Positions 3,549 through 56,481 of a DNA stretch of 64,000 bases are shown piece after piece. Origin of the DNA: Candidatus Dojkabacteria bacterium (GTDB taxonomy: Bacteria; Patescibacteriota; Dojkabacteria; SC72). Below the pieces are notes generated by a model that saw only the letters and a program-made list of their open reading frames with translations, did no database searches and had not been told where the DNA came from. The stretch is taken from assembly GCA_050950145.1 (NCBI GenBank), contig JBMNHB010000001.1:53136-117135 (forward strand), written 5' to 3'. The translations under genes were made by a program, and so were the position numbers. Each line of letters starts with the position of its first letter. Positions within the stretch are counted from its first letter, which is position 1.

Positions 3549-4589
3549 ATGTTTAATCCCAAATACACCCTAAGTAATTTTCTCCTAATCAATATTCGTA
3601 AGGTTGGAGAGTTAATAGGGGAACTAAATAGTAAACAATTTACTAAAACAATACTTTTTAACTTAGAGAAAAAAGCTAGAATACTCTCTTCTTTTACATC
3701 TACAAAGATAGAAGGGAATCCATTATCATTAACAGATGTAAAAACAATTCTTAAAACAGAACCTAGAAACATTAAAGATACTGAGAAAGAGATAATTAAC
3801 TATAATGATGTAGTAGTAATGTTAAATGAAGAAATTAAGAAGAATAATGATTTAATTCTTTCAGATAAACTAATATGTAAAATACAAGGTATTGTTACAA
3901 AAGGTTTACTTCCTTCTTCATATAGAGGGAAATATAGAAAAGAACCAGTATTTGTAAATAACCCATTAACAGGAGAAACGGTGTACTGGCCACCTGATGC
4001 AAAAGATGTAAATAATTTGATGAAAGAGTTGATAGATTTTGTTAATAAGTCAGAAGGAAAGATAGATCCTTTGATTCTAGCAGGTATTTTTCACAAACAA
4101 TCAGTTGTAATTCATCCATTCATGGATGGTAATGGAAGAACAACAAGATTAGTAACTAAGACATTACTTGCAAAATTAGGTATAAATACATTTCCTCTAT
4201 TTAGTTTTGAAAATTACTATAACAAAGATGTGTCTAAGTATTTTCAAAAAGTAGGAGTAATGGGAGATTACTATGATATTGCTAATGATTTAGACTTTAC
4301 AGAGTGGTTAGAATATTTTGTTGAAGGGATTTTAGATGAATTAAATAGAGTTAAAAAAGATTTACCTAGATACAAAGAGAGATTGGAACCTCACGAGAAG
4401 AAGATAGTAGAGTATCTTAAAGATAATGGTTCAATATCATCTAGTGAGTATTATGAAATTAGTAAAAGAGCTAGATCTACAAGAATTAAAGATTTTAGAA
4501 TATTAAGAGATAAGGGTGTTATCAAACCTGTTGGACAAGGAAAAGCAACATACTATATATTAGATAATGACTATTGGTTTTTAGAGTAA
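3549..4589 (+). CDS. Fic/Doc (Fido) family protein, class II, with C-terminal winged-helix domain
   Basis: Canonical HPFMDGNGRTTR active-site motif; N-terminal STKIEG matches the inhibitory (S/T)xxxE(G/N) helix; C-terminal wHTH-like segment. Confidence 0.85.
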   Translation: MFNPKYTLSNFLLINIRKVGELIGELNSKQFTKTILFNLEKKARILSSFTSTKIEGNPLSLTDVKTILKTEPRNIKDTEKEIINYNDVVVMLNEEIKKNNDLILSDKLICKIQGIVTKGLLPSSYRGKYRKEPVFVNNPLTGETVYWPPDAKDVNNLMKELIDFVNKSEGKIDPLILAGIFHKQSVVIHPFMDGNGRTTRLVTKTLLAKLGINTFPLFSFENYYNKDVSKYFQKVGVMGDYYDIANDLDFTEWLEYFVEGILDELNRVKKDLPRYKERLEPHEKKIVEYLKDNGSISSSEYYEISKRARSTRIKDFRILRDKGVIKPVGQGKATYYILDNDYWFLE

Positions 4590-6269: not shown

Positions 6270-7253
6270 CTTAATCAGTAATGACATATTCCCCACCCTT
6301 AGTTAAACTAATGGTATAGGACAAATGAAAATAAGCACAATAAGAAAGAGGTTCTTAGAAAATAATAGGAATGTCTCTAAAACAGCAAGAGAACTAAACA
6401 TTGATAGAAAGACTGTCAGAAAGTGGATCAAAAAGAAAAGAGGATGGCATAACAAACTAGAATATGTAAACAAGAAAAGATTACCTACTACCCCAAAGAA
6501 TATTAAAAACAAAATATCTCTAGATACAAGGAGATTAATTGTACATATTAGAGAAGAATATGGATATGACCAAGATAAAATATCATTCATTCTAAAAAAT
6601 CAATACAATATACATGTGTCAGGAAAATCAATTTACAATATAATTAAGAAAAGAAAACCTTACTTAATTTCAAAAAGGAAGAAGTATGGAAGACCTCATT
6701 TCCAAGATAGTAGCCATATGAGACCTAGTAATACAAATAATGTGGGATATGTACAAATGGATGTAAAATATGTCACTCCACAGCTCTCTGGACTACCTTT
6801 TACATGCTACGAATATGGAATAATTGATATTTACTCTAGATATAAGTATGCATGGATATTACCTACATTGGATACAGAGAGTGCAATTGTAGCCCTTAGA
6901 GGAGCAAGACAATCTCTACCTTTTAAAATTAAGTTTGTACAGACAGATAATGGATGGGAGTTCTCAAAAAGGTTTAGTGAGGAATGTAAAAGATTAGGGA
7001 TTAAACATTACTACATTCACAAATCAACACCAAATGAGAATGCGGTAATTGAGAGGAGCTTTAGAACAGATCAAGAGGAGTTCTTCTTTAGATTAAAGAG
7101 TAGACCTAAAGATATTAATGAGCTAAATATCTTGTTTCAAAAGTTCCTACATGTATACAATACTTTTAGACCACATATTGGGATAGGGCTCAAAACTCCG
7201 CTACAGATGATACAATCTGAGCCGTAGGTGGGGAATATGTATTACTGATTAAG
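6270..7253 (+). mobile_element. Insertion sequence, IS481/IS3-like single-ORF DDE element with 6-bp target site duplication
   Basis: 28-bp terminal inverted repeats (cttaatcagtaat[g]acatattccccacc, 1 indel) at 6270-6298 and 7225-7253; direct repeat caccca at 6264-6269 and 7254-7259. Confidence 0.8.
6325..7227 (+). CDS. DDE transposase (rve integrase-core, IS481-like)
   Basis: N-terminal HTH; core ...QMDVKYV...FVQTDNGWEF...PNENAVIER; stop codon lies inside the right IR. Confidence 0.85.
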   Translation: MKISTIRKRFLENNRNVSKTARELNIDRKTVRKWIKKKRGWHNKLEYVNKKRLPTTPKNIKNKISLDTRRLIVHIREEYGYDQDKISFILKNQYNIHVSGKSIYNIIKKRKPYLISKRKKYGRPHFQDSSHMRPSNTNNVGYVQMDVKYVTPQLSGLPFTCYEYGIIDIYSRYKYAWILPTLDTESAIVALRGARQSLPFKIKFVQTDNGWEFSKRFSEECKRLGIKHYYIHKSTPNENAVIERSFRTDQEEFFFRLKSRPKDINELNILFQKFLHVYNTFRPHIGIGLKTPLQMIQSEP

Positions 7254-8024: not shown

Positions 8025-8750
8025 ATGGATTTAACAGAGAGACAAAGAGAAATACTTACTGCAATTATAGAAGAGTTCATGCAGGAGGCAGATGAGGTAG
8101 GTTCATTATCGCTCGTTGAAAAATATGACTTAGGTGTTAGTTCTGCAACGATTAGGAATGAAATGGTTAAACTAATGGATTTGGGACTTTTGGAAAAAAG
8201 TCATATATCTTCCGGAAGATTACCAACAGATCAGGCATTAAGATTGTATGTGACAAAAATTCTTGAAAGAAGGCAGTTAAGTCCATTAGTTAGTGTTGAA
8301 ATTAGACAGGGAATATATAGAGATAGGTTTGATAAGGATGTTGTAATTAAATCAGTTTTAGAGATCTTATCCAAAGAAACAGAGAGTCTAGTTTTTTTGG
8401 TGTTAGATGATCAGATTAGATATTTTGGAATTACACAACTCTTTAAATATTCCGAATTTAAGAATGTTGAGAAGTTAAAAACAATATTTAGTATTTTAGA
8501 AGATGATATATATTTAAGGGATATGGTAAAGAAATATTCAAGTTCAGGAGTTTCATTATTAATTGGTGGAGAATCTGGGATAAAGGAGTTAACTGATTGT
8601 GCAATTGCATTTACAAAGATTCCATTTTGGGATGAAAATCAGGCATATGTCGGGATTTTAGGATCTAAGAGAATGGATTACTCTATTGTAATACCAGCAT
8701 TAAATGAAGTGAGGAATGCGTTAAGTGCTTCAATGTCAGGATGGAGATAA
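8025..8750 (+). CDS. hrcA: Heat-inducible transcription repressor HrcA (short form)
   Basis: N-terminal wHTH (LTERQREILTAIIEEF...) and HrcA-like body; precedes grpE-dnaK. Confidence 0.85.
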   Translation: MDLTERQREILTAIIEEFMQEADEVGSLSLVEKYDLGVSSATIRNEMVKLMDLGLLEKSHISSGRLPTDQALRLYVTKILERRQLSPLVSVEIRQGIYRDRFDKDVVIKSVLEILSKETESLVFLVLDDQIRYFGITQLFKYSEFKNVEKLKTIFSILEDDIYLRDMVKKYSSSGVSLLIGGESGIKELTDCAIAFTKIPFWDENQAYVGILGSKRMDYSIVIPALNEVRNALSASMSGWR

Positions 8751-8766
8751 ATTCAGATAGTTAGTT

Positions 8767-9291
8767 ATGAAAAAAGATAAAAATACAAAACAGGATACAA
8801 ATGTGCAAGATTTTCAGAAGAAGATACAGGAATTGGCACTTACGATAGATAAGGTAGAGGATGAGAAGTTGGTTGTTGAAAATCAATTAAAGAAGGCTTT
8901 AGCAGATTATCATAATTTACAGTCAAGTATGGAGAAGAGGCAGGCTCTAAGTATCTTTAATATGAAGAAAAGATTCTGTGAAGAGTTCTTACCAAGTATG
9001 GATGCCATGGTTTTAAGTATTGAGAGTGAAAAGACATTACAACTAGATGATAAAGAGAAGGCATGGTTTGAAGGTGTAGTTGCAATCTTTGAATCTATGA
9101 AGAAATCTTTAGAAGGTATAGGTTTAAAAATATATCTTCCTCAAGTGGGAGATATGTTTGATACATCTATACATGAGGCAATTGCTACATCTGAAGGTGG
9201 CAAAACAGGTGAGATTACTGCAGTAGTTCAACCTGGATACACACTAGATGATACTGTAATTCGTCCTTCCAAAGTATTGGTATCTAAATAA
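8767..9291 (+). CDS. grpE: Nucleotide exchange factor GrpE
   Basis: GrpE coiled-coil plus C-terminal beta domain; sits between hrcA and dnaK. Confidence 0.85.
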   Translation: MKKDKNTKQDTNVQDFQKKIQELALTIDKVEDEKLVVENQLKKALADYHNLQSSMEKRQALSIFNMKKRFCEEFLPSMDAMVLSIESEKTLQLDDKEKAWFEGVVAIFESMKKSLEGIGLKIYLPQVGDMFDTSIHEAIATSEGGKTGEITAVVQPGYTLDDTVIRPSKVLVSK

Positions 9292-9318
9292 TTGAATTAA
9301 ATTTTTACAATAAAATAT

Positions 9319-11229
9319 ATGTCAAAAATAATAGGTATAGACTTAGGAACTACAAACTCTGCCATGTCTTTCATGGAGGGTGGTAAGCCAAATATAATTG
9401 CAAACTCACAGGGAAGTAGACTTACTCCTTCTGTAGTTGCAGAGGATGAAAAAGGTGAGATTCTTGTTGGTACTCCAGCTAAGAATCAAGCAGTTGTTAA
9501 TCCAGAGGGTACTATCTACTCTGTAAAGAGATTGATTGGTAGGAGTTGGGATGATCCTGAAGTTAAGAAAGATGCGAAACTATTACCATTTGAAATGAGG
9601 AAAGCATCTAATGGTGGTGTTGAAGTTAAAATGGGAGATAAATGGTACACACCACAAGAGATCTCTGCAAAAGTCTTAGCAAAGATGAAGAAAGATGCAG
9701 AGGAATTCTTAGGTCAAGATGTTAAAGAAGCTGTAATTACAGTCCCAGCATATTTTGATGACTCTCAAAGACAGGCAACAAAGGATGCAGGTAAGATTGC
9801 AGGTTTGGATGTTAAAAGAATTGTTAATGAGCCAACAGCAGCAGCTTTAGCATATGGATTGGATGATAAAAAGGATCAGAAAGTTGCAGTATTTGACTTA
9901 GGTGGTGGTACATTTGATATCTCTATCCTTGAAATGGGTGATGGAGTTTTTGAAGTTCTTTCAACAAATGGTGATACACACTTAGGTGGTGATGACTTTG
10001 ACCAAGAAATCATTGATTACCTTGCAAAAGAATTTGAGAAGAAAGAAGGTATGGATCTTAGAGAAGACAAGACTGCACTTCAGAGATTGAAAGAGGCTGC
10101 AGAGAAAGCAAAGATTGAACTTTCTACATCAGAAGAAACTGAAGTTAATGTTCCTTACATTACAGCAACAGATAAAGGACCAAAGCATTTGAAAGAAAAA
10201 TTAACTAGATCTGAATTAGAGAAATTAACAAATGATTTAATTGAGAAGACAGTTAAACCATGTGAGAAGGCTCTAAAAGATGCAGGATTAGATAAGAAAG
10301 ATATTGATGAGGTGTTACTTGTAGGTGGTATGACAAGAATGCCAGCTGTTGTTAAGAAGGTAAAAGAAATCTTTGGTAAAGAACCAGATAAAGGTGTAAA
10401 TCCTGATGAGGTTGTAGCACAAGGTGCAGCAATTCAAGCAGGAGTTCTAGGTGGTGATGTAAAAGATATTACACTCTTAGATGTAACACCATTATCTCTT
10501 GGTTTAGAGACATTAGGTGGAGTATTTACCAAATTAATTGAGAGAAATACTACAATTCCTGTTGAGAAGAAACAGATTTTCTCTACAGCTGCTGATAACC
10601 AGCCAGGTGTTGAGATTCATGTTCTTCAGGGAGAGAGAGAGATGGCTGCAGATAACAAGACATTGGGTAGATTCTTACTTGATGGTATCCTACCAGCACC
10701 AAGAGGAGTTCCTCAGATTGAAGTTACATTCTCTATAGATGCTAATGGAATCTTAAATGTTAAAGCTTTAGATCTTGGAACAAAGAAAGAACAGAAGATT
10801 ACAATTACAGCATCTACTGGACTAAAGGAAGAAGAAATTGAAAAGATGGTTGAGGAAGCAGAGAAGAATGCAGAAGAGGATAAAAAGAAGAAAGAGAGAG
10901 CGGAGAAGAGGAATAATGCAGATACATTAGCATTTAATGCAGAGAAAATGATAGATGAGAACAAGGATAAGATTTCTGAAGATGAACAGAAGAGTATTAA
11001 GGAGAAAGCAGAAGAACTAAAAGAGATAATTAAGAAAGAAGATTTTGATTTAGATGAGGTAGAAAAGAAATCTGAAGAATTAGAGAAGGAGATGTTAGAA
11101 GTAGGTAAGAAGGTATATGAGGCAGCTGCAAAAGAATCTGAAGCTAAAGAAGAGAAAAAAGATGATGAGAAACCATCAGAAGAAAAGAAGGATGAAGAAG
11201 CTAAGGAGGGTGAGGTAGTAGAAGAGTAA
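9319..11229 (+). CDS. dnaK: Chaperone DnaK (Hsp70)
   Basis: [18 protein letters not shown] and other Hsp70 signatures; acidic/KE-rich C-terminus. Confidence 0.97.
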
Positions 11230-14838: not shown

Positions 14839-16479
<1,641 letters not shown>

Positions 16480-17060: not shown

Positions 17061-17332
17061 AGAATAGAAAAGAAGGTCATAGATATGAAATATAATTTCG
17101 TAATTGTAAGAATTTTGTAAGAAATGAAATAGATAATCTGTATATGGAAGCATTAAAAGAATTAGTAAAAGAAATAGATAGAATATATGGGAAAAAGAAG
17201 ATCAATAGAAGAGATTTAGAAAGATTGTTGAAGAAGTGTAGGAAGGTAAGAAAAACTTTATCCCGTTTTTAATCTGGATTTAATAATTTCTTGTTATATA
17301 TCTATATATCCTTAAATTTTTATCTAAAAATT

Positions 17333-18139
17333 ATGAAAGAAAATAACACAATCAAACTATTTCAAAACAAAAAGATACGAGTAGAGTGGAATAGTGAAAA
17401 AGAAGAATGGTTGTTCTCAATTGTAGATATCATAGGTGTTTTAACAGAGAGTCCAAATCCTAGAAATTACTGGAAAGTTTTGAAATTTAGGTTGCAAAAA
17501 GAGAATAGTCAGTTGGTTACAAATTGTAACCAACTGAAATTAAAATCATCTGACGGGAAATATTACAAAACAGATGTAGCGAATACAGAGCAGATTTTAA
17601 GAATCATACAATCAATACCTTCTCCAAAAGCAGAGCCTTTTAAATTATGGTTAGCACGGGTTGGTAAAGAACGAATAGATGAAACAATTGATCCAGAATT
17701 AACGATAGATAGAGCATTAAGAACTTATCAGAAAAAGGGATACAGTAAGGCATGGATAAATCAAAGATTACAATCTATTCAAGTAAGAAAAGAACTTACA
17801 GATGAATGGGAAGAAAGAGGTGTGAAGAGAGGTTTTGAGTTTGGAATCTTAACAGATGAGATAACTAAAGCTTGGTCTGACCTCACAACACGAAAATATA
17901 AAGAATTAAAAGGTTTAACAAAAGAAAACCTTAGAGACAATATGTCTACTATTGAAATAGTTCTGAATATGTTAGCAGAAGCATCAACAACAGAAATTTC
18001 CAAAGAAGTCCAACCAAAGAATTTTGATGAGAATAAAAAAGTAGCAAAGTTAGGAGGAAATGTTGCTGGAAATGCGAGAAAAGAAATAGAGAAGACAACA
18101 AAGAAGTCAATTATTACAAATAGAAAAACTCTTCAATAA
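17333..18139 (+). CDS. dinD: DNA-damage-inducible protein D homolog (Bro-N domain)
   Basis: N-terminal Bro-N-like segment (WLFSIVDIIGVL...NPRNYWK); C-terminal region collinear with E. coli DinD (..LKKNQKILDHMGSTELAANLF.. ~ ..LTKENLRDNMSTIEIVLNML..). Confidence 0.7.
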   Translation: MKENNTIKLFQNKKIRVEWNSEKEEWLFSIVDIIGVLTESPNPRNYWKVLKFRLQKENSQLVTNCNQLKLKSSDGKYYKTDVANTEQILRIIQSIPSPKAEPFKLWLARVGKERIDETIDPELTIDRALRTYQKKGYSKAWINQRLQSIQVRKELTDEWEERGVKRGFEFGILTDEITKAWSDLTTRKYKELKGLTKENLRDNMSTIEIVLNMLAEASTTEISKEVQPKNFDENKKVAKLGGNVAGNARKEIEKTTKKSIITNRKTLQ

Positions 18140-21324: not shown

Positions 21325-22540
21325 CAATGTAAAAGAGCTACTTTCTAAAGAAACTCAGAGACAGGTAGAGGGATTAGAATTAATTGCCTCTGAAAACTAT
21401 GTTTCTGAAGAAGTACTTGAGTGTATGGGTTCAATTCTTACCAACAAATATTCTGAAGGGTATTCCGGAAAGAGATATTACAATGGAAATGAGTATATTG
21501 ATGAGATAGAAAATATTGCAATAGAAAGAGCAAAGAATCTCTTTGGTGTTGATCATGTTAATGTTCAACCTTACTCTGGTTCTCCTGCAAATCTTGCAGT
21601 TCATTTTGCACTGTTAGAGACTGGTGATAGGACTTTGGGAATGTCTTTAGATGCGGGTGGTCACCTAACACATGGTTTTAAGGTTTCCTTCTCAGGAAAA
21701 TTTTACAACTCAGCTAGTTATGGAGTTAATGATGAAGGATATATTGATTATGATGAGGTTTTAAGAATTGCAAAAGAACATAAACCTAAGTTAATATGGG
21801 CAGGGTTCTCTGCATATTCTAGAGTGATAGATTGGGAGAGGTTTAGAAAGATAGCAGATGAGGTAGGAGCATATTTTGTAGCAGATATTGCTCATGTAGC
21901 CGGTTTAGTTGCAGCAGGTGTATATCCATCTCCAGTACCATATGCAGATGTGATAACTACAACAACACATAAGACGCTTAGAGGCCCTAGAGGGGCAATG
22001 ATTATGTGTAAGGAGGAGTTTGCAGAGAGGATAGATAAAGCTATATTCCCAGGATTACAGGGAGGTCCACATAACCACACAACAGCTGCGATAGCAGTAG
22101 CATTAAAAGAAGCAAGTACAGAAGAATTTAAAGAATATTCAAAACAGGTAGTAACTAATGCAAAGGTTCTAGCCGACTCTTTGAGTAAATTAGGTTACAA
22201 GATAGTATCTGGAGGAACAGATAATCACTTATTCCTTGTTGATGTTTTCTCTTCTGTTAACCTATCTGGTAAAGAAGCAGGTGATATGTTAGATAAAGCG
22301 GGTATTACTGTCAACAAGAATGCTATTCCAAACGATACTAGAAAACCTTGGGATCCATCAGGTATTAGAATTGGTACACCGGCATTGACAACAAGAGGTA
22401 TGAAAGAAAAAGAAATGGAACAAATAGCATCATATATTAATAGAGCACTAACAGAATGTCAGAGTGATAAGGATTTTATGAAATTAAAAGGTGAGATAAA
22501 AGAATTTACTGCCTTATTTAAAATTCCTGGGATAAAATAA
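21311..22540 (+). CDS. glyA: Serine hydroxymethyltransferase
   Basis: LELIASENY..., [16 protein letters not shown]-lysine region; GTG start overlapping the folD end. Confidence 0.95.
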
Positions 22541-22541
22541 T

Positions 22542-24137
22542 ATGAAAATAGTTTTTAGAAAAGATCTAAATATTGCCACCATTCGTTCTGATTCATTATG
22601 GAACAAGATGGTTGTACATACTCTTTTACAAAACTGTTCTACAAAACAACCATCAATAAATGCATATTTAGGTGCTAGGTATAGTAGGTCTGCTGATTCA
22701 ATAGTAGATATTGCATCAGAGATTATAAATAGTGGTAAAGATGCCTCTGAAAGGTTAGAAAAGATATTTGCTGGATATGGGCATAAGTCTGTAGGGGATA
22801 TGGCAGAGTTATTTGTTTGTATAGAGAATGTTCCAATTATTACAGGTATGAAGTTCTTCTATATGAATCCTGTTATTGCAGGTCAAGAGCGATCTACTAG
22901 ATATCAAAATTTTTCTGATCCTAATTTTGTTAAAATTCCTGCAGAGGTATGTAGTAATCAATCAGTAAGAAAAGAATATGAAAAGATAATATTTAAGCAG
23001 CTTGCAGATTACAAGAGACTTCTTAAGATTACGCGAGAAGAATTATCTAAGATTTTCAAAATTAACGAAGAGAGTCCTCAGGAAGTCTCTGCTTTAAAGG
23101 CAAGGAGTTTTGATGTTGCTAGATATCTTCTTCCTGTGGGATTGAGTACAAGTGATGCTATGGTGATGTCTGCTCGTTGTTGGTCTGAATTTATTGGTTT
23201 TCTCGCAGGGAGTGATAGTGTTGTTGATAATGAAGTAGCTGATTTAGTGTTGAATTTGTTGGGAGATTCTAATATTGATACTAAGGGATATATTCGGGAG
23301 GCAGATAATCTAATTCGTCACACAGAGTCAAATAGTAGTAGAGGTAATTCTACAAAAGAAGTTTTGGAGTATATTGGTAAGACATTAAGTAGGGAACAGG
23401 TTGATTCTATACCTGAGAGTGAAAGTGAGTCTGTTTCTGTAAGTTACTCCCCTGATTTTACAGAATCTTTATTTTCTCATTATGAAGCTTTATTAAATCC
23501 CTTAGGTTCTGTTGATGAGTATGAATTTGATGAAGAAGATCAAGAGAATATTAGTGAGATACTTTTTGAGAATCATAATCATCATAATACAATTGGGAAT
23601 ATTGGACAGAGTGGTGCAGTTAAAATAGAGGGTTTTGCTACATTAGGAACGTTAAAGGATTTGAATAGGCATAGGAGTTTGGAGAGGTTTATACCTTTAT
23701 TACATGATGAGGTAGATATGGATCAGGAGTTGGATAGAAGAAATGATGAATGTTTTTATCTATGTAATTATCTTGATATTCCAAGCTTAAAGAATTTAAA
23801 GTCTGAGTACAAGAAAGCCTTGTCAGAAACATATGAGATGATAAAGGAGTGGAGAAGTAATGCTAAGGAATATCTTTCTGAGGAAGTATGTGATGAGTTC
23901 ACTAAATATCTACTACCACATGCTCATACAACTAAGTATATGATGTATGGTTCTTTTGATGATTTACAATATGTTGTTAATTTAAGAATAAGGAATGGGG
24001 GACATATAGCATATAGAGTGGTGGTACATGAGTGGTTAAAGAAGTTAGGAATACAAGACCCTATATGGAGAGGTTTACAGAAGAGGCTCAAAGCACCAAA
24101 AGTTGATGATAAATTTGAATTTGTAGATAGGTCATAA
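22542..24137 (+). CDS. thyX: Flavin-dependent thymidylate synthase ThyX, tandem-duplicated (two ThyX-like repeats, 531 aa)
   Basis: Repeat 1 has ERSTRY (like ELSGRY) and ARYLLPVGL...SARCW, but no RHR. Repeat 2 has LNRHRS and TKYLLPHAH...VVNLRIRNGGH (like NLRADSHAQ). Located between glyA and dcd. Confidence 0.6.
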   Translation: MKIVFRKDLNIATIRSDSLWNKMVVHTLLQNCSTKQPSINAYLGARYSRSADSIVDIASEIINSGKDASERLEKIFAGYGHKSVGDMAELFVCIENVPIITGMKFFYMNPVIAGQERSTRYQNFSDPNFVKIPAEVCSNQSVRKEYEKIIFKQLADYKRLLKITREELSKIFKINEESPQEVSALKARSFDVARYLLPVGLSTSDAMVMSARCWSEFIGFLAGSDSVVDNEVADLVLNLLGDSNIDTKGYIREADNLIRHTESNSSRGNSTKEVLEYIGKTLSREQVDSIPESESESVSVSYSPDFTESLFSHYEALLNPLGSVDEYEFDEEDQENISEILFENHNHHNTIGNIGQSGAVKIEGFATLGTLKDLNRHRSLERFIPLLHDEVDMDQELDRRNDECFYLCNYLDIPSLKNLKSEYKKALSETYEMIKEWRSNAKEYLSEEVCDEFTKYLLPHAHTTKYMMYGSFDDLQYVVNLRIRNGGHIAYRVVVHEWLKKLGIQDPIWRGLQKRLKAPKVDDKFEFVDRS

Positions 24138-24734: not shown

Positions 24735-26066
24735 CTATATTCCTGTTGGTGGTGTCATGTTTTCGTTTGTTGTAGGTTGTTCAGGTTCTATGTTGTTCTC
24801 TACACTAGTAGGAATATTATTAATCTCCATATTTACAGCATTTTGTAGATCATTGTCCATTGGAGATGTTGTATCTGCTTGAGTAACTACAGATTCTATT
24901 GGTTGTTCAGTTGATCCTAAATTGGGAGATGCTAGATTATCTGTTTCTACTTCAAGAGGTGAAGTTGATCCTACATCAGGTAAACCTCCTTCAGTCACAT
25001 TTGCAGAGTAGTTACCACTAAGTGACCCATTTATTATGGAAGATGTATTAGCATTTGCTTCTTGTACTTCTTGTATAGGTTGTTGTGGAAGCGTTACCTG
25101 TTCCTCTGAAGGTATTGTATTTGGTGTGTCTGTAGGAGTACTTGTAACCATACTAGGATTTTCACTTTTTAAGAGTTCTTCTAAGTCTGCTTGCTCATTT
25201 GGTGTAGAAGAAGCAGGTGATGTCTCAGGAACTGTTGGTACCTGTTCTGTAGTTTGTTCAGGAGCTTGTGTTGGCTGATTTATCATCTCCGCTAATGTTG
25301 GTTTTGACTGGGCAATATTATCTTGCATAGTTTCATTCTGTAGATTCTGTGGAATGTTCTTAAAGTCAACAGGTTGTTGAGTTGGTTGTGGAGTAGGCTG
25401 AGTCGGTTGTGGAGGCATAACAGATGCAGGAACATCAGTTAGCACGACATTATCCTTTTTCATTGTGACCGACAGTACAATAATGATAATGAAAAATATA
25501 CCAGCAACTCCTAGTAATATATATGGTAGATAAGCCATAATTTTATTATCTTTTTGAGCCGTTGTTTCTGACATTGTAGTAGTGATCTCCTGTGTGGTTA
25601 GTTGTGTTGGAGAGGTTTCTGTATCATCATTAGTAGTAGAATCTTTTATATTATCTCCGACATTTGTTACCGAATCTATTGTTAAATCACCTATCTGAGA
25701 CTCTTCTTGCATTATTGTAAATTTATAATCATCGGATGATGAGGTAAATAGAATAGTAGCTATTAATCCTTGTACAGGTTGATTAGAAGGTAATGTACAT
25801 ACTATCTCTGAAGAACTATCACTTGGCACGTAAGAAAAAGTTGAGCAAGATATGTCTGACTCTACAATATCTGTAATAGTTACATTTTCGGAGTGTTGTA
25901 TTATGATTTTTACATTCTCTGTAGATTCAGATTTTGTATCAATTGAAACAGCAATAGATTTTTTAGTAGAACTAGAAGTTTCTTGTAGTTTAAGTTCTGC
26001 AGCATAACTCAAATTAACGAAGGTAAATAAAAAAAGTATAGAAAAGAAAATAGCGATATTTTTCAT
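24735..26066 (-). CDS. Secreted/membrane protein with signal peptide, central TM helix and Thr/Pro/Gln-rich low-complexity regions
   Basis: N-terminal signal (..VNLSYAAE), TM (ILLGVAGIFFIIIIVLSV), PTQPTPQPTQQP repeats. Confidence 0.4.
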   Translation of the reverse strand: MKNIAIFFSILFLFTFVNLSYAAELKLQETSSSTKKSIAVSIDTKSESTENVKIIIQHSENVTITDIVESDISCSTFSYVPSDSSSEIVCTLPSNQPVQGLIATILFTSSSDDYKFTIMQEESQIGDLTIDSVTNVGDNIKDSTTNDDTETSPTQLTTQEITTTMSETTAQKDNKIMAYLPYILLGVAGIFFIIIIVLSVTMKKDNVVLTDVPASVMPPQPTQPTPQPTQQPVDFKNIPQNLQNETMQDNIAQSKPTLAEMINQPTQAPEQTTEQVPTVPETSPASSTPNEQADLEELLKSENPSMVTSTPTDTPNTIPSEEQVTLPQQPIQEVQEANANTSSIINGSLSGNYSANVTEGGLPDVGSTSPLEVETDNLASPNLGSTEQPIESVVTQADTTSPMDNDLQNAVNMEINNIPTSVENNIEPEQPTTNENMTPPTGI

Positions 26067-26164
26067 CTAAAGGCAGTTTAAAATTATCTATAAAAGAGTA
26101 CCATGATGGGATGATGATGTCAAAGAGTTTGACTTAATTGTAATGAATATATACACTTAAAGTT

Positions 26165-27349
26165 ATGGAATATCCCATGAGTAACAAACTGCCTACCTCT
26201 GGAGTTGATGAAAGTATAGATGAAGTTCTTGCATTAGAGAACAAACTTCTATCTTCGTCTGCTCCTCATGACTTAAAGGAAGAATCTAAGCTCTCTATAG
26301 ATAGGCTCAAAAGGATGATTCGTATGGGTGGGTATAGTAGTGAATTTGAAACTGTAAGTAAGTATATAGATTGGATTGTAAGAGTACCTTGGAACTCATT
26401 TTCTGAAGATGTTTTAGATATTGTAAGTGCAAAAAAAATCATGGATAGTACACATTATGGTATGGAATCTATTAAAAACCTCATCCTTGATTATTTAGCA
26501 TCTATGCAATTGAAAAAAGAAAATTATCAAAAGAGAGATGTTATTCCTACCCAGTTTCAAGTAGGAGTAGAAGAAAATATTCAGAATAGACCAGTTGTTA
26601 AAGTTGAGAAACAGAAAATCTATACACCAGTATTTCTTTTTGTTGGTTTGCAAGGTGTAGGTAAAACATCTATAGCGAGGTCTATTGCACAATCAATGAA
26701 TAGGAAGTTTGCAAGAATCTCTCTTGGTGCTATTGGTGATGTAAGAACTTTAAGGGGAACCCCAAGGTATTCAATTGATGGTGAACCAGGACAGATAGTA
26801 AAATCTCTGATTAGATGTGGTACTATGAACCCTGTTATTCTTTTGGACGAAATTGAGAAATCTAGTGCTAATACAGGTCTTCTTAATGATGTGATGGCAA
26901 CCCTTTTGGAGATTTTAGACCCAGAGCAAAATACATCTTTCATAGATCATTATATTGATTATCCAATTGATTTATCTAATGTAATGTTTATTTGTACCGC
27001 AAATAATTTAGGAGGGCTTTCTGCTGCTTTGTTAGATAGGGTAGAAGTAATTAGGTTTACCAGTTATTCAGATGAGGAGAAGAAAGTAATTGCGAAGCAG
27101 TATATTCTTCCTGAGGTATTAGAAGAATATAATTTAACATCAAATGAAATTCAAATTTCTGATGATATATGGTTATCAGTTATCAGACCTGTAGGTTTTG
27201 ATGCTGGTATTAGACAGTTAGAAAGAAATATTGCAACCATGATAAGGAGTGCAGCGAGAAAAATTGTAGAAGGTAGTCCAACTCCGATAAGTATCAATAA
27301 TGAGAATCTTTCAGAATTTCTTACTGTTGATCAAGGTCCTCTTAGTTAG
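26165..27349 (+). CDS. Lon-type AAA+ ATPase module without LON N-domain or S16 protease domain
   Basis: Collinear with the Lon AAA+ region: YIDWIVRVPWN, HYGMESIKNLILDYLA, GLQGVGKTS (Walker A; Lon has GPPGVGKTS), ILLDEIEK (Walker B), FICTANN, LLDRVEVIRFTSYSDEEK. ORF stops ~30 aa after the AAA+ lid. Confidence 0.8.
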   Translation: MEYPMSNKLPTSGVDESIDEVLALENKLLSSSAPHDLKEESKLSIDRLKRMIRMGGYSSEFETVSKYIDWIVRVPWNSFSEDVLDIVSAKKIMDSTHYGMESIKNLILDYLASMQLKKENYQKRDVIPTQFQVGVEENIQNRPVVKVEKQKIYTPVFLFVGLQGVGKTSIARSIAQSMNRKFARISLGAIGDVRTLRGTPRYSIDGEPGQIVKSLIRCGTMNPVILLDEIEKSSANTGLLNDVMATLLEILDPEQNTSFIDHYIDYPIDLSNVMFICTANNLGGLSAALLDRVEVIRFTSYSDEEKKVIAKQYILPEVLEEYNLTSNEIQISDDIWLSVIRPVGFDAGIRQLERNIATMIRSAARKIVEGSPTPISINNENLSEFLTVDQGPLS

Positions 27350-27354
27350 TAGTT

Positions 27355-27621
27355 TTATACACCTTTAAAAGGATTTTTTAGTTGTAATGCAGATATAGCT
27401 CTTGATATTTGTGGGTTTTTTACTGATTTTGCTATATTAGATCTGTAATTACTTTTCTCTTCTGCTTTAAGTAATTGTTCTAAATCCGAACTTTTGGCTT
27501 CTTCTGTTAATGATTTTGTATCAACAGCTTGTGTTACAAGATATAGTTCTTCTTGTATTTTTTCAGGTTCTTTTTTAGTTGTTTTTTTATTAAAGAAACT
27601 AAACATTTTTATCTTCTTCAT
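27355..27621 (-). CDS. Small hypothetical protein, last gene of the VirB4 operon
   Basis: 88-aa ORF overlapping the virB4 3' end by 23 nt. Confidence 0.25.
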   Translation of the reverse strand: MKKIKMFSFFNKKTTKKEPEKIQEELYLVTQAVDTKSLTEEAKSSDLEQLLKAEEKSNYRSNIAKSVKNPQISRAISALQLKNPFKGV

Positions 27622-30010
27622 TAGGGTAACTTTCTGTATAGCCCTGTGGTGTTAAATGTTTCTTACCTTTTTGTATATCTTTCCTAGAACTCACAACTTG
27701 TCCTGTTAGGGTCTTTTGACTCAACTCATCTATGAATGTCTTTTGACTTTTATATTTATCTGGATTTATCACCTTTTCTTGTTCAACTAACCTTTTTTCT
27801 AACTCTTCTTGATATTTTATTCTTTCATCCAAGAGCATCTCTCTCTGTTTTTCTTTAGCCTCTATAGCTTCCATGATAATTTCGCTTTCTCTTGTACTAC
27901 TATCTCGTATAGGTTGTTGTACTGCTGGAGGATCATATATTTGAGCTAATTCTTGAACTGTTCTTGTGTCTGTTATACCTTCTTTTTCTTTGAGTCTTTC
28001 TAAATCTTTAGGGTCAGATGTAATAATTTCATGCTCAGCAACACTTGATAATACTTGAATACCAACATGGTTTTGTCCTGCAAAAAATAATCCTTGTCCT
28101 TTATCACAGTTTAATAGGTAATTTCTTTCTCCATCTGATAAGTTGAAAACTTTTTGTAGTAGTTCAACAGCAGAAGGGCTTTGTTTCATTAGCATTTGTA
28201 TTGAAGAGTTAGAGATAATTGCTTTTCCCATTTCATTTCCTAAGAAATCTGCAACATCTTGTGTAATTGTTGATAACCCTAGATAATATTTTCTAGCTCT
28301 TTTAGCAATAGTGTACATAAATTTAGCTGAATCCTCCGATTGCATCATATACCAAGCTTCATCAACAATTAATAATCTTCTTTTTCTATCTTTTCTAATT
28401 CTTGTCCAGATAAAGTCCAACATTAGGTACATAGCTAGTGGTTTTAGTTCATCCTGTAAATCTCTGATACTGAATACTGTGAATGGATTATTAATCTCAA
28501 AGTTACTTGCTTCATTAAATACTCCTGCACCACTTCCTATAATGTATTTTTCAAGCCTTCTTGCTAAACCATGTGCTTCTGTTTCAGCCATACCTTTAAG
28601 GACTTTGTATAAATCTTCAAGTAAAGGAGGTGTTTTGGTCTGAGTTTTAACATCAAATGTTATACCTTTTTCTTTGTATGTCAGAGATAAAGCTCTATCT
28701 AATATAGAATCTTCAATATTTGTTATTCCTTCAAATAGTACTTTGAAAAACCCATGAAGTGATAATAGTTTCATTCTTAACTCATCATCTCCTTCTTCTG
28801 TTACTCCTGAAAGTTCAAAAGGATTCATTTTGTGTCCCTTATCTTGTGAGAAAGAGATATAAGCTCCATTAACAGCTTTTGCTAAATTCTCATACTCTCT
28901 TTCTGGGTCAATTATGATAATCTCGGTTCCTAGCATTAAACTTCTAATAGCTTCAAGTTTAACGAAGTAACTTTTTCCTGCACCAGATTTTGCAAATATT
29001 ACTGCATTTGCATTTTCTAATTCAAACCTATCAAATACAATCAAACTCTTGTTGTGCATATTTAATCCATACATAATCCCATGATCCATTGTTAATTCCG
29101 AAGTAACAAATGGAAAAGTAGTAGCTAATGAAGTAGTATCCATATTTCTAGTTATGAAGAGGTTGTCTATTCCTAATGGTTGTGTACTTATGAATGCTTG
29201 TTCTTGTTGTAAGGTTGCAGGTTTAGCTGTTACATTCATTGCTGCAAATGTAGATATGACATTTCTTGATATCTTTTCCAATTCTTCTTTGTTGTTAGCA
29301 TAGAGGGTTACATACATGGAGAAATGGAAGAATTTCTCTGTTCCTTCTGCAATAGAGTCTTGTAACATTTGTGCGTCTGAGAGAGCAACTTTAAGTGATG
29401 GATCTATGACTTTTCTATCCTCCATCTGAGTGTAGAGTGTAGCTTCCATCTCACCTATCTTCTTTTTTAATTTTTCTAGAATGGTTTTAGAATCTACTGG
29501 ATAGTAGAATGTACTAATTCTTAATGAGTGCTCAAAGTTGATAATAGGAGATAACCAGTTAGGTCCTACGAATCTGGGATACCCACTTACGAATAGTGTT
29601 CTAAAGTAATATCCTCCCATCTGCAAATGAGTGAAATCAATTTCCATATCAATAGGGGCGAGTAAGTCCTGCATTGACATCTTTGTATCAACACCAATAC
29701 TACTATCAATACTTTGTACTTCTTCTTTAGGTACTTCTTGTACCTTATCTTCTTCTTTCTTTTCCTTACTTTTTTTGTTTTTTCCAGTGATTATGTCTAA
29801 TAGCTGAAATATAGGGTTAACCTTTTTCTTCTTCTCTTCATTTGTGTCTACAAACTCCTCTATTGGAACAAATGGTTTATCCATCTTATCACTAGGTTCT
29901 ACCTTTATCTGTTCTTTAAAGGTAGTATACTTCTCCTGTGCTGTTTGTAGCTTTTTTTGTCTTTCCATCATCATATTGCTAGTTTTACTTGTAATATTGT
30001 TGTTTTCCAT
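27599..30010 (-). CDS. virB4: Type IV secretion/conjugation ATPase, VirB4/TrbE/CagE family (Gram-positive TcpF/PrgJ-like)
   Basis: YFRTLFVSGYPRFV...WL pattern; Walker A AKSGAGKSY; NPF; Walker B LLIVDEAWYMM; RKYYLGLSTITQDVADF. K/E-rich ~110 aa N-terminal linker and ~130 aa coiled-coil C-terminal extension. Confidence 0.85.
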   Translation of the reverse strand: MENNNITSKTSNMMMERQKKLQTAQEKYTTFKEQIKVEPSDKMDKPFVPIEEFVDTNEEKKKKVNPIFQLLDIITGKNKKSKEKKEEDKVQEVPKEEVQSIDSSIGVDTKMSMQDLLAPIDMEIDFTHLQMGGYYFRTLFVSGYPRFVGPNWLSPIINFEHSLRISTFYYPVDSKTILEKLKKKIGEMEATLYTQMEDRKVIDPSLKVALSDAQMLQDSIAEGTEKFFHFSMYVTLYANNKEELEKISRNVISTFAAMNVTAKPATLQQEQAFISTQPLGIDNLFITRNMDTTSLATTFPFVTSELTMDHGIMYGLNMHNKSLIVFDRFELENANAVIFAKSGAGKSYFVKLEAIRSLMLGTEIIIIDPEREYENLAKAVNGAYISFSQDKGHKMNPFELSGVTEEGDDELRMKLLSLHGFFKVLFEGITNIEDSILDRALSLTYKEKGITFDVKTQTKTPPLLEDLYKVLKGMAETEAHGLARRLEKYIIGSGAGVFNEASNFEINNPFTVFSIRDLQDELKPLAMYLMLDFIWTRIRKDRKRRLLIVDEAWYMMQSEDSAKFMYTIAKRARKYYLGLSTITQDVADFLGNEMGKAIISNSSIQMLMKQSPSAVELLQKVFNLSDGERNYLLNCDKGQGLFFAGQNHVGIQVLSSVAEHEIITSDPKDLERLKEKEGITDTRTVQELAQIYDPPAVQQPIRDSSTRESEIIMEAIEAKEKQREMLLDERIKYQEELEKRLVEQEKVINPDKYKSQKTFIDELSQKTLTGQVVSSRKDIQKGKKHLTPQGYTESYPNEEDKNV

Positions 30011-50735: not shown

Positions 50736-51821
50736 ATGGAAAAAAGAGATTATTATGAAATTTTAGGAGTAGACAAGAAAGCTTCTTCTGCAGAAATTAA
50801 AAAGGCCTACAGAAAGTTGGTGAAAAAATATCATCCGGATGTAAACAAGGAATCAGGTGCTGAAGAGAAATTCAAAGAGATACAGGAGGCATACGAGACT
50901 CTTTCAGATGAATCTAAGAGATCAGCATATGACCAATACGGACATGCTGGTACAGCTGGTTTTAATCCTGGAGCAGGTGGTGGATATACTGATTTTGGAG
51001 GAGCTCCTTTTGATATGGGAGATATTTTCAGTACCTTTTTTGGTGGAGATAGTGGTTTTGGTTTTGATTTTGGTGGACAGAGAGGTCCTAGACAGGATAT
51101 CGGTTCAGATATTAAGTATAGGATTAGATTAAGTTTCTTGGAGGCGATGAAAGGTGGTGAGTACAAAATTAAGGTTAAGAGAGAAGAAAGATGTGGTGAA
51201 TGTAATGGTACTGGAAGTAAATTAGGTAAGAAGAAAGAATGTCCAGTATGTAAAGGGAGTGGTCAACAGCAACAGGTGAGAAATACAATATTTGGTCAGA
51301 TGGCAATGATGAGTACATGTCAGAATTGTGGTGGTTCCGGAGAAGTGGTAGATGATCCTTGTGATAAGTGTAAGGGAAGTGGTATTGAGAATGTAGAAGA
51401 GAGTTTTAATATTAAGGTTCCAGCTGGTGCATATGATGGTATGGTCTTGAGGTTTAGAGGTGGTGGTAATGTTGGAAGAAATGGTGGTTCAGTTGGTGAT
51501 TTGTATATTGAGATTGAAGTAGAAGCTTCAAATGAATTTGAAAGAAGAGGTAATGATATTTACTCTGAGATGTCTATATCCGTATATACTGCTGTTTTAG
51601 GAGATACTGTTCCTGTTAAAACAATTTTTGAAGATGTTAAATTAAAGATTCCAAAAGGTACACAACCAGGTACGATATTTAGATTAAGGGGTAAGGGTGC
51701 ACATGTTCTTAATTCAGAAAAAGATAGAGGCGATCATTATGTAAGGATTAATATTGAGATTCCTACAAGGTTAAACAAGGAAGAAAAAGAGCTTTGGGAA
51801 GAACTAAAGAGTGGTGAATAA
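50736..51821 (+). CDS. dnaJ: Chaperone DnaJ
   Basis: J-domain ([11 protein letters not shown]), G/F region, four CxxCxGxG zinc-finger repeats. Confidence 0.95.
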
Positions 51822-55056: not shown

Positions 55057-56481
55057 ATGCAAAAACAATATATTCAAATAGGGAATCAGAATGTTTTCAA
55101 TGGACAATATCTTCTTGCAGTTTTTAGGATAAAAGGAGAAGAAGGTATTACTGTTGAAGATATCGCTAGTGAAGTAGCTGCAGAGTCTTCTACTGGTTCA
55201 AATGTAAAAATCAAAATATCTACTCCTTTTTCTGAAAGTTTAAATGCGGTTGTATACAGAGTGGATGAAGAACAAAATCTTGCTTGGATTGCATATCCCT
55301 GGAGAATCTTTGATAGAGGTGGTAATGTTCAAAATATCATGACCTTTCTTGCTGGAAATGTATTTGGAATGAGTAGTGTAAAGGCTTGCAAACTACTAGA
55401 CGTATATTTCCCTCCTCAGATGCTTGTTCAATACGATGGTCCAAATTACACAATTGATGATATGAGAAAGTATCTTGGTGTTGAGAAAAGACCAATATTT
55501 GGAACAATCATTAAACCTAAAATAGGATTAACATCTTCAGAATACGCAGAAGTTTGCTATGACTTCTGGTCAGGTGGTGGTGATTTTGTAAAAAATGATG
55601 AACCTCAAGCAGATCAAGATTTTGCTCCTTTTGAATTCATGGTTAGAGATGTAAGGCTGGCAATGGACAGAGTAGAGCAAGAAACAGGAAAAACAAAAGT
55701 ACATTCCTTTAATATCTCTTCAGCTGATTTTGATACAATGATAAAGCGAGCTGACTTTGTCCAATCAGTAATGAAACCCGGTAGCTATGCATTTTTAGTA
55801 GATGGAATTACAGCAGGTTGGACAGCAGTACAAACAATTAGAAGACGATATCCTGATGTATTCTTACATTTCCATAGAGCTGGACATGGTGCATTTACAA
55901 GAGAAGAAGCACCATTTGGTTTTACAGTTCCTGTTTTAACAAAGTTTGCGAGATTGGCAGGAGCATCAGGCATTCATACAGGAACAGCTGGCGTAGGTAA
56001 AATGGCAGGATCTCCAAAAGAAGATATTATGGCTGCAAATCATGCCTTAAGACTCTTTTCAAAAGGTGATTTCTTTAATCAAATATGGTCAGAAATACCA
56101 GAAAAAGATACAGATTTGATAGATGCAATAAAGAAAGAACAAGAAGGACAAGACTATTCTGGTTTTGGATATTGGAGAATGGTTAAAAAGACTACTCCAA
56201 TTATCTCAGGAGGTCTAAACCCAACATTAATAGGAAAATTCTTAGATGTAGTTGGAACACTGGATTTCATTACAACAATGGGTGGTGGAGTACATTCTCA
56301 TCCAATGGGTACAAAAGCTGGGGCAACAGCAGTATTACAAGCATATGAGGCATGGGAGCAAAAAATTCCTTTAGAAGAATATGCCCAAGATAAAGAGGAA
56401 TTGAAATCTGCAATTGAATTCTATGGAAAGAAAAAAGTAGAGAGTACCTCTGAGGCGGATGAAGACAAACCCATTATATAA
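55057..56481 (+). CDS. Ribulose-1,5-bisphosphate carboxylase large subunit, form II/III-like
   Basis: GGGDFVKNDEPQ (carbamylated-Lys region), IIKPKIGL (catalytic Lys), 474 aa; no small subunit gene adjacent. Confidence 0.9.
   Translation: MQKQYIQIGNQNVFNGQYLLAVFRIKGEEGITVEDIASEVAAESSTGSNVKIKISTPFSESLNAVVYRVDEEQNLAWIAYPWRIFDRGGNVQNIMTFLAGNVFGMSSVKACKLLDVYFPPQMLVQYDGPNYTIDDMRKYLGVEKRPIFGTIIKPKIGLTSSEYAEVCYDFWSGGGDFVKNDEPQADQDFAPFEFMVRDVRLAMDRVEQETGKTKVHSFNISSADFDTMIKRADFVQSVMKPGSYAFLVDGITAGWTAVQTIRRRYPDVFLHFHRAGHGAFTREEAPFGFTVPVLTKFARLAGASGIHTGTAGVGKMAGSPKEDIMAANHALRLFSKGDFFNQIWSEIPEKDTDLIDAIKKEQEGQDYSGFGYWRMVKKTTPIISGGLNPTLIGKFLDVVGTLDFITTMGGGVHSHPMGTKAGATAVLQAYEAWEQKIPLEEYAQDKEELKSAIEFYGKKKVESTSEADEDKPII

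Follow-up and report, generated by a model that had tools for sequence, protein, structure and literature searches.

A conserved LonA paralogue without the protease and N-terminal domains in Dojkabacteria and other CPR/Patescibacteria groups

The stretch of DNA analysed here (the window, 64 kb of contig JBMNHB010000001.1 of a Candidatus Dojkabacteria bacterium) contains a complete gene for a stand-alone LonA-type AAA+ ATPase of 394 amino acids (aa), hereafter the Lon-AAA gene (table 1). The gene is an intact, conserved paralogue of LonA without the protease and the N-terminal domain, it is under strong purifying selection, and together with its relatives it forms an old clade which is distinct from canonical LonA. 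This family is conserved across several ultra-small bacterial groups within the Candidate Phyla Radiation (CPR)/Patescibacteria and is so far undescribed in the literature found. As to its role, the sequences point, with a probability of roughly 0.6, to a functional and vertically inherited LonA paralogue, reduced to the three-helix bundle and the AAA+ module, which would act as a ring-forming, ATP-driven remodeller or regulator.

In the Pfam search, the 394-aa protein shows the domains AAA (PF00004, residues 158-299, 9.6e-19) and Lon_lid (PF22667, residues 320-371, 2.8e-11), and it has no match to LON_substr_bdg (PF02190) or to Lon_C (PF05362, the S16 Ser-Lys protease domain). In the NCBIfam scan, the model TIGR00763 'endopeptidase La' is matched with E = 8.7e-97 over profile positions 252-570 of 795 alone, and the score of 325.4 bits is below the cut-off of 608.05. 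The same applies to NF008053, with a score of 263.9 vs a cut-off of 891. For ClpA, ClpB, ClpC and ClpV, the model matches are no better than E = 3e-11, far behind the Lon match with 9e-97. No curated family of NCBIfam or Pfam covers protease-less Lon AAA+ proteins as such. In the numbering of E. coli Lon (EcLon), the protein ends at about residue 585; of the EcLon sequence that served for the numbering and as the tblastn query, the middle part matches the alignment of the structure 6n2i. An earlier note, made from the letters of the window, had described a Lon-type AAA+ module without the LON N-domain and the S16 domain, which runs parallel to Lon between the end of the N-terminal coiled coil and the lid (inclusive) and has every AAA+ motif, and both the Pfam content and the alignments agree with this description. 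Concerning the start of the gene, the ATG at 26165 is preferred over the NCBI start four codons later (P0001), because the 19 aligned orthologues have the N-terminus M-[DE]-Y-[PS] in common.

The missing domains were searched for in the window and around the related genes. The upstream minus-strand gene stops at 26066 and the downstream minus-strand genes start 5 bp past the stop codon; since these neighbours box the Lon-AAA gene in, there is no room for a flanking domain. In tblastn searches of the window, the protease (P) and N domains of EcLon gave best E-values of 3.9 and 8.1, respectively, and the P domains of four CPR Lons gave nothing better than E = 0.056. The CPR Lon N-domain matched the helical stretch that is retained in the protein (E = 0.003) and, weakly, one further site (22058-22306, E = 0.007). 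A hidden Markov model (HMM) of the P domain, built from 19 full-length Lons and run with the filters off, found nothing at E <= 1 in all stop-to-stop open reading frames (ORFs) of the window, and the N-domain model found only the retained helical stretch. No peptidase gene is present among the 53 window ORFs covered, whether by Pfam (40 ORFs besides Lon-AAA) or by the annotations of orthologous loci. Similarly, the S16 domain is absent from 1.32 Mb of flanks at 85 family loci (~10 kb around each), and the neighbours at these loci include no conserved peptidase gene cluster. It had been claimed in the earlier note that no protease ORF follows the gene, and the tblastn search of the S16 domain in all frames of the window bears this out. 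A frameshifted protease domain immediately downstream, which the same note had named as contrary evidence, or any relic of it, is ruled out by tblastn and by the unfiltered HMM. A split gene with an adjacent peptidase in the relatives is rejected as well, on the basis of the flanks of the 85 loci.

The homologue search, which covered 5.8 billion proteins, retrieved at least 120 orthologues with 63-100% identity, all of them 386-425 aa long except for one fragment of 352 aa, and all with the Pfam content of the window protein. Where named, these orthologues are labelled Candidatus Dojkabacteria 'AAA family ATPase' or, by JGI, 'ATP-dependent Lon protease'. The 19 aligned orthologues have a mean column identity of 72%. 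The ratio of nonsynonymous to synonymous substitution rates (dN/dS, Nei-Gojobori) was computed for two orthologues: it is 0.059 for the one with 84% identity and 0.091 for the one with 71%, and dS is close to saturation. Among representatives at 50% identity, an exhaustive HMMER search brought up further short relatives (343-548 aa, 42-62% identity), and the nearest full-length Lons in the same search are ~40-45% identical to the window protein.

When one genome per GTDB species was scanned, 80 family loci were found in Dojkabacteria, WWE3 and Microgenomates, the last represented by Woese-, Gottesman-, Levy-, Davies-, Roizman- and Shapirobacteria; the complete genome CP011214.1 is among the carriers. 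The comparison of orthologous loci, which had been suggested in the earlier note, showed the same short architecture with fixed boundaries at 85 loci, where the family gene has 340-472 aa without exception (85/85). Together, the loci, the window and 13 proteins of the representative search give 95 family sequences that are not identical to one another; almost all of them have 340-472 aa, and in 93 of the 95 the alignment stops at EcLon 578-589, that is, at the AAA-protease linker. In the neighbor-joining analysis (265 AAA+ columns, 20 canonical LonAs), the split between the family and the canonical LonAs is found in 100 out of 100 bootstraps, and the median identity is 42.8% from family to canonical sequences vs 59.4% among the canonical ones. 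The family proteins are acidic, with a median isoelectric point of 5.7.

A single contig (CAYWTN010000008.1, 46,475 nt, locus L079) carries both a canonical LonA and a short gene, 8 kb apart (table 1). The LonA ORF (LON_substr_bdg, AAA, Lon_lid) runs off the locus, and the whole protein (P0277) has 820 aa with Lon_C included. Because this complete LonA co-resides with the short gene in one genome, the short gene is a paralogue of LonA. The AAA+ cores of the two proteins are 38.9% identical; P0277 has the motifs GPPGVGKT and HRRTYVGAMPG, and the short copy GLVGTGKT and ESRLHTEAEPG. A search with the same LonA indicated that canonical LonAs are common in CPR. Among the best 120 full-length CPR Lon matches none is labelled Dojkabacteria, with organism names given on just four of them.

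In order to compare the functional residues, the 95 family sequences were set against 19 canonical LonA sequences in EcLon numbering. The Walker A residues G356, G359, G361, K362 and T363 are found in 95/95 family sequences, and they are conserved in the canonical ones, T363 being Ser in one of the 19. Walker B D423 and E424, sensor-1 N473, the Arg finger R484 and sensor-2 R542 are each present in 95/95 and invariant in canonical LonA. The window protein has the respective residues K167/T168, D228/E229, N280, R292 and R350. Between the catalytic columns, the canonical PP of Walker A is replaced by [LVI][QVA] in the family. The GLQGVGKT variant, which had been pointed out in the earlier note, is real, and it is a signature of the clade and not a defect.

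The pore loops of the family are diverged. In canonical LonA, pore-loop 1 reads HRRTY[IV]G[AS][MLI]PG, with the Tyr in 19/19. In the family, the position of this Tyr (398) is occupied by Ser (19), Phe (18), His (18), Glu (11) and others, and the next position is mostly Pro. G400 is replaced by Asp (45) or Glu (33), position 402 is Glu in 92/95, and the pore carries a fixed acidic motif, [DE]-[AS]-E-P-G. At position 432 of pore-loop 2, the canonical sequences have Phe (12) or Tyr (6) and the family has Ala, Ser or Gly; no pore-loop-2 aromatic is found in any of the 19 Dojkabacteria-clade sequences. The window protein reads R-Y-S-I-D in pore-loop 1, with Y202 one residue N-terminal of Lon's Tyr and a Ser at the canonical position. 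In MtaLonA, the residues Tyr397 and Trp431 touch the chain during its translocation, and degradation requires them (PMC8503904). Concerning the 'unfoldase/regulator' of the earlier note, the repurposing stands, but the term unfoldase is weakened because the residues with which the pore loops of Lon grip the substrate are not conserved in the family.

The closest solved relative is 6n2i, the E. coli Lon AAA+ fragment (chain of 344 aa), which was found with E = 2e-73 by HMMER against the PDB. An AlphaFold2 (AF2) model of the monomer, based on 94 sequences, has a predicted local distance difference test (pLDDT) value of 77.4 and a predicted template modelling score of 0.72, while the 19 close orthologues alone gave a pLDDT of 64. 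Superimposed on 6n2i, the model has a template modelling score of 0.90, normalised by target length (338 residues). The best 50 Foldseek matches of the model are all LonA or LONP1, and the identity to LonA over ~370 residues is 31-37% (37% to EcLon by tblastn). Predicted disorder is limited to residues 1-10, 126-149 and 391-394. The N-terminal helical region corresponds to the last part of the LonA long helix and to the three-helix bundle preceding the AAA+ module (about EcLon 244-340), with AF2 helices at residues 11-30, 35-53, 60-73, 86-96 and 101-124. An insertion that canonical Lon lacks precedes the AAA+ core; the segment has 25 to 71 residues in the Dojkabacteria clade vs 15 in E. coli Lon, and P128 and Q130 within it (I-P-[TS]-Q) are invariant in the clade. 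The C-terminal tail DQGPLS is invariant in the 19 Dojkabacteria-clade orthologues bar one Thr replacing Pro (P392 at least 90%), and the tails outside the clade differ (..LP[QT][WY] and ..D[IF]GV[YF]S).

Taken as a remodeller or regulator, the protein would form a hexameric ring like the AAA+ ring of Lon and cycle ATP, since the trans-acting Arg finger is conserved. The ATP would be used to bind and remodel, or to hold and release, client proteins or complexes. As the pore loops are diverged and the family has no protease chamber that would need a supply of substrate, the protein is most likely an AAA+ machine of the chaperone-like or regulatory kind and not a motor for processive degradation. 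The Tyr one residue upstream (Y202) may keep some threading ability in the Dojkabacteria clade.

Several points weigh against this reading. An aromatic residue of pore-loop 1 (positions 396-399) is kept in 13 of the 19 Dojkabacteria-clade sequences, the window protein included, and in only 18 of the 76 other family members; translocation is for this reason possible for the window protein. We infer hexamer formation and ATPase activity from the conservation of motifs alone. The near-invariant DQGPLS tail resembles a docking motif, and a partner peptidase could make use of it. The window covers 64 kb of a source contig of ~749 kb, and a separate S16 peptidase or a full lon may be located elsewhere.

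A more specific form of the remodeller is rather doubtful, namely a new kind of AAA+ machine, a Lon-derived ring in which the fixed acidic [DE]-[AS]-E-P-G motif has taken the place of the aromatic 'paddles' in the axial pore. It would not thread unfolded chains, but would capture and release basic clients in an ATP-driven manner, as a housekeeping remodeller restricted to a large part of CPR. The gene of Microgenomates and WWE3 is co-directional with its neighbors, in the order nusA..nrnA-rpsO-pnp-[gene]-udg-rnj-ftsK (neighbors confirmed by Pfam), with pnp directly upstream in 26 loci (gaps of 6-227 bp) and udg or rnj directly downstream in 31 loci (gap often <30 bp). Basic clients, for instance ribosomal or RNA-binding proteins, would fit because of this tight placement between PNPase and RNase J. 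In the window, nusA, infB, a RuBisCO gene and pnp are found at 52-59 kb, and the distance of 25-32 kb from the Lon-AAA gene shows that the linkage to pnp is not obligatory.

It is also rather unlikely that the protein is a protease-less subunit or regulator of canonical LonA, which would co-assemble into LonA hexamers or cap them and so modulate their activity. The inactive FtsHi subunits with FtsH are the analogue. Such a role is consistent with the co-residence of P0277 and the short gene on one contig, with the presence of both kinds in Gottesmanbacteria-labelled records (canonical P0384; short L047, L053 and L070), and with the fact that the protein retains Lon's AAA+ interfaces as well as its N-terminal three-helix bundle. 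However, LonA is nearby at only one of the 85 loci, the identity between the two AAA+ cores is low (just 38.9%), and the protein has preserved its whole catalytic set together with the Arg finger, as is expected of an autonomous homo-oligomeric ATPase.

A split Lon, in which the AAA+ ring would dock, perhaps by its C-terminal tail, on a separate S16 or other self-compartmentalised peptidase and feed substrates to it in the manner of ClpX-ClpP or HslU-HslV, is considered unlikely. The end of the protein at the AAA-protease linker and the pore-loop aromatic retained in 13/19 Dojkabacteria-clade members argue for such a translocase, whereas the family-wide loss of the pore-loop aromatics disfavors it. 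Docking would agree with the near-invariant tail of the Dojkabacteria clade and with the conserved ..LP[QT][WY] at the end of other clades, but the tail differs from clade to clade. In addition, no S16 domain lies within ~10 kb of the 85 loci or in the window, and no peptidase is a conserved neighbor. A ClpP-docking 'VGF' was considered and rejected: the motif P-[VL]-G-[FY]-D, with its G-[FY] dipeptide, sits in the lid loop before sensor-2, where it replaces Y-T-R-E of Lon, and there is no inserted loop of the ClpX type.

In the Dojkabacteria clade, the order of the genes is dcd (+), a Thr/Pro-rich membrane protein of 413-461 aa (-), Lon-AAA (+), an ORF of 88 aa (-), and VirB4-like, TraC-like and PrgI-like genes (all -). 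The earlier note had placed the gene convergent with an operon resembling a type IV secretion system (T4SS), and the VirB4, TraC-like and PrgI-like genes were indeed recovered. A functional T4SS link is nevertheless unlikely, because only the Dojkabacteria clade shows the adjacency, the genes there are not co-directional, and elsewhere the gene lies between pnp and udg/rnj. That the protein is an accessory ATPase of this T4SS-like apparatus, of a pilus or of an anti-phage system is very improbable. The convergent operon is found in 16-18 loci with the stop codons -4 to +13 bp apart, and PilM follows downstream instead in the variant of L004/L005, but genes in convergent orientation are not co-transcribed. 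For defence, the PADLOC matches to DolB (2.8e-12) and PDC-M37B are weak, with no more than 45 bits over the generic AAA+ core alone, which is far below the Lon matches, and the membership in a defence system is rejected.

A decaying lon pseudogene, or a truncation by assembly or annotation, can practically be dismissed, because in spite of the loss of two of LonA's three regions and a score under the TIGR00763 cut-off, identical boundaries recur in >200 homologues from independent assemblies, dN/dS is ~0.06, the catalytic residues are invariant, no S16 relic exists in any frame, and the gene is internal to the window with conserved genes tight on both sides. From the two options of the earlier note, the degenerating lon gene is for these reasons, and for the age of the clade, refuted, and the repurposed one is retained; the truncation at the edge of an annotation, which it had also considered, fails on the same boundaries.

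Table 1. Coordinates of the Lon-AAA gene, of the features along its product and of other genes (window positions, except for the two genes of contig CAYWTN010000008.1)
Feature	Position	Strand	Remarks
Stand-alone LonA-type AAA+ ATPase gene, 394 aa, complete	26165..27349	+	ATG start; TAG stop 27347-27349
Promoter-like TTGACT-17-TACACT	26129..26157	+	Ends 8 nt before ATG; possible very short leader; weak
N-terminal helical region, residues 11-124	26195..26536	+	Aligned with 6n2i and 3m6a by HMMER
Variable predicted-disordered insertion, residues 125-152	26537..26620	+	pLDDT <50 at 126-149; HMMER Lon alignment splits there
AAA+ α/β (large) subdomain, residues 153-300	26621..27064	+	PF00004; Foldseek LonA/LONP1 matches
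Walker A GLQGVGKT (G161-T168)	26645..26668	+	Variant of Lon GPPGVGKT, still fits GxxGxGK[ST]
Pore-loop 1 RGTPRYSIDGEPG (R197-G209)	26753..26791	+	D205 and E207 acidic
Walker B ILLDE (D228, E229)	26837..26851	+	D423/E424 95/95 in family
Pore-loop 2 region SSANTGLLNDVM (residues 233-244)	26861..26896	+	Without aromatic residue
Sensor-1 Asn N280	27002..27004	+	N473 95/95 in family
Arg finger R292	27038..27040	+	R484 95/95 in family
Lon-type lid (α) subdomain, residues 301-386	27065..27322	+	PF22667; sensor-2 R350 at 27212-27214 (R542 95/95)
C-terminal tail DQGPLS (residues 389-394)	27329..27346	+	Sits where Lon has the AAA-protease linker
Upstream neighbor, 443 aa	24735..26066	-	Divergent; no Pfam match; conserved at -1 in 12 Dojkabacteria-clade loci, 82-134 bp spacer
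88-aa ORF	27355-27621	-	No Pfam/PADLOC match; ends ..NPFKG[VY]
VirB4-like ATPase (P-loop_TraG, DUF87) of T4SS-like operon	27599-30010	-	Convergent with Lon-AAA gene
hrcA-grpE-dnaK, dnaJ and 540-aa ORF (14857-16479)	8025-11229, 14857-16479, 50736-51821		hrcA-grpE-dnaK and dnaJ Pfam-confirmed
Canonical LonA of locus L079	1-1746	-	Contig CAYWTN010000008.1
Short gene of locus L079	9854-11035	+	Contig CAYWTN010000008.1

The divergent neighbor of 443 aa starts with a hydrophobic N-terminus, which is followed by a ~130-aa domain, a single hydrophobic segment and an extended tail rich in Thr, Pro and Gln. The 88-aa ORF is located directly after the VirB4-like gene in 12 Dojkabacteria-clade loci, with an overlap of 23 nt in the window, and it probably encodes the final small component of this T4SS-like operon. 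The VirB4-like ATPase also matches the PADLOC model 'mad8' (8e-22). Promoter-like sites in the region are not above chance (7 vs 9.2 expected). Among the family loci, many records (L041, L043-L045, L048, L049, L058, L060, L061, L063, L064, L069, L076, L077, L079-L081, L085 and others) are metagenome-assembled genomes from 'binchicken'/SRP co-assemblies. Their titles read 'uncultured Gammaproteobacteria', 'Pseudomonadales' or 'Candidatus Saccharibacteria', yet their locus is of the CPR type (rpsO-pnp-LonAAA-rnj or the Dojkabacteria arrangement), and the taxonomy in the titles looks like a placeholder or an error.

Chaperone genes are present in the same window (table 1). The 540-aa ORF has the length and the position of the Cpn60 gene (groEL) annotated in the orthologous loci L002 and L086. 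The CIRCE operator (TTAGCACTC-N9-GAGTGCTAA, <=3 mismatches) is found nowhere in the 64 kb, and heat-shock control of the Lon-AAA gene via HrcA was rejected on this basis; the HrcA operator of the Dojkabacteria lineage may differ from CIRCE. ThyX (Pfam Thy1; 22542-24137, +) has 531 aa, with the same length in L002 and L086. This is about twice the usual length of ThyX, and the protein may be duplicated or fused. The RuBisCO large-subunit gene (474 aa; 55057-56481, +) is placed between infB and pnp in the housekeeping nusA-infB-...-pnp cluster; RuBisCO in Dojkabacteria/WS6 has already been reported (PMC5113843). A Fic-domain protein (3549-4589, +), an rve-type integrase/transposase (6325-7227, +) and a Bro-N protein beside a helix-turn-helix regulator (17291-18139, +) lie amid housekeeping genes and may be remnants of mobile elements or prophages.

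Compared with LonA (MEROPS S16; E. coli Lon, B. subtilis LonA, M. taiwanensis LonA and human LONP1), the family shares the AAA+ α/β subdomain, the lid and the three-helix bundle, and the Walker A, Walker B, sensor-1, Arg finger and sensor-2 of the window protein are at the same positions. Unlike LonA, it lacks both the LON N-domain and the Ser-Lys protease domain, its Walker A is G[LVI][QVA]G instead of GPPG, and a fixed acidic pore motif is found in place of the conserved Tyr/Ile pair of pore-loop 1 (EcLon Y398-I399), with the pore-loop-2 aromatic also missing; the Dojkabacteria clade carries in addition a disordered insertion of ~30 residues before the AAA+ core. The structure 6n2i has nearly the same boundaries, but it is a laboratory truncation of a protease, whereas the family occurs naturally, is conserved and carries sequence signatures of its own. 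All Lon proteases have an A domain followed by a P domain, and both domains are stated for every Lon of the classes LonA, LonB, LonC and LonBA (PMC9569914); since both domains are required, the family is by definition Lon-derived and not a Lon protease. LonC (e.g., of Meiothermus taiwanensis) has kept the protease and lost the ATPase activity, with a chaperone-like function reported (PMC3391209, PMC13069640). LonC is the mirror image of the family, in which the protease is gone and all the ATPase residues are retained, so that each gave up one of the two activities.

ClpX, HslU, ClpB and FtsHi are further AAA+ proteins without a covalently attached active protease, with ClpX-ClpP and HslU-HslV being two-component proteases. 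The family differs from the ClpX/HslU type in that it has no ClpP-docking loop and no adjacent peptidase gene at its loci. No paper on Lon in Dojkabacteria, Patescibacteria or CPR was found, a protease-less Lon is absent from the 20 best-ranked of 49 papers on Lon-like proteins, and the genome paper on Dojkabacteria mentions no protease (PMC5113843).

The family indicates that the AAA+ module of Lon can have a selectable function of its own. Lon is regarded as the archetype of the AAA+ proteases, with motor and protease fused in one chain, and proteolysis-independent, chaperone-like roles have long been discussed for it; the protease-less family bears on these roles. The altered pore loops provide a test case for a Lon ring that does not feed a protease. 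Moreover, the JGI labels 'ATP-dependent Lon protease' on genes of the family overstate the proteolytic capacity of these minimal genomes, in which, across three major CPR lineages, a natural counterpart to LonC is encoded.

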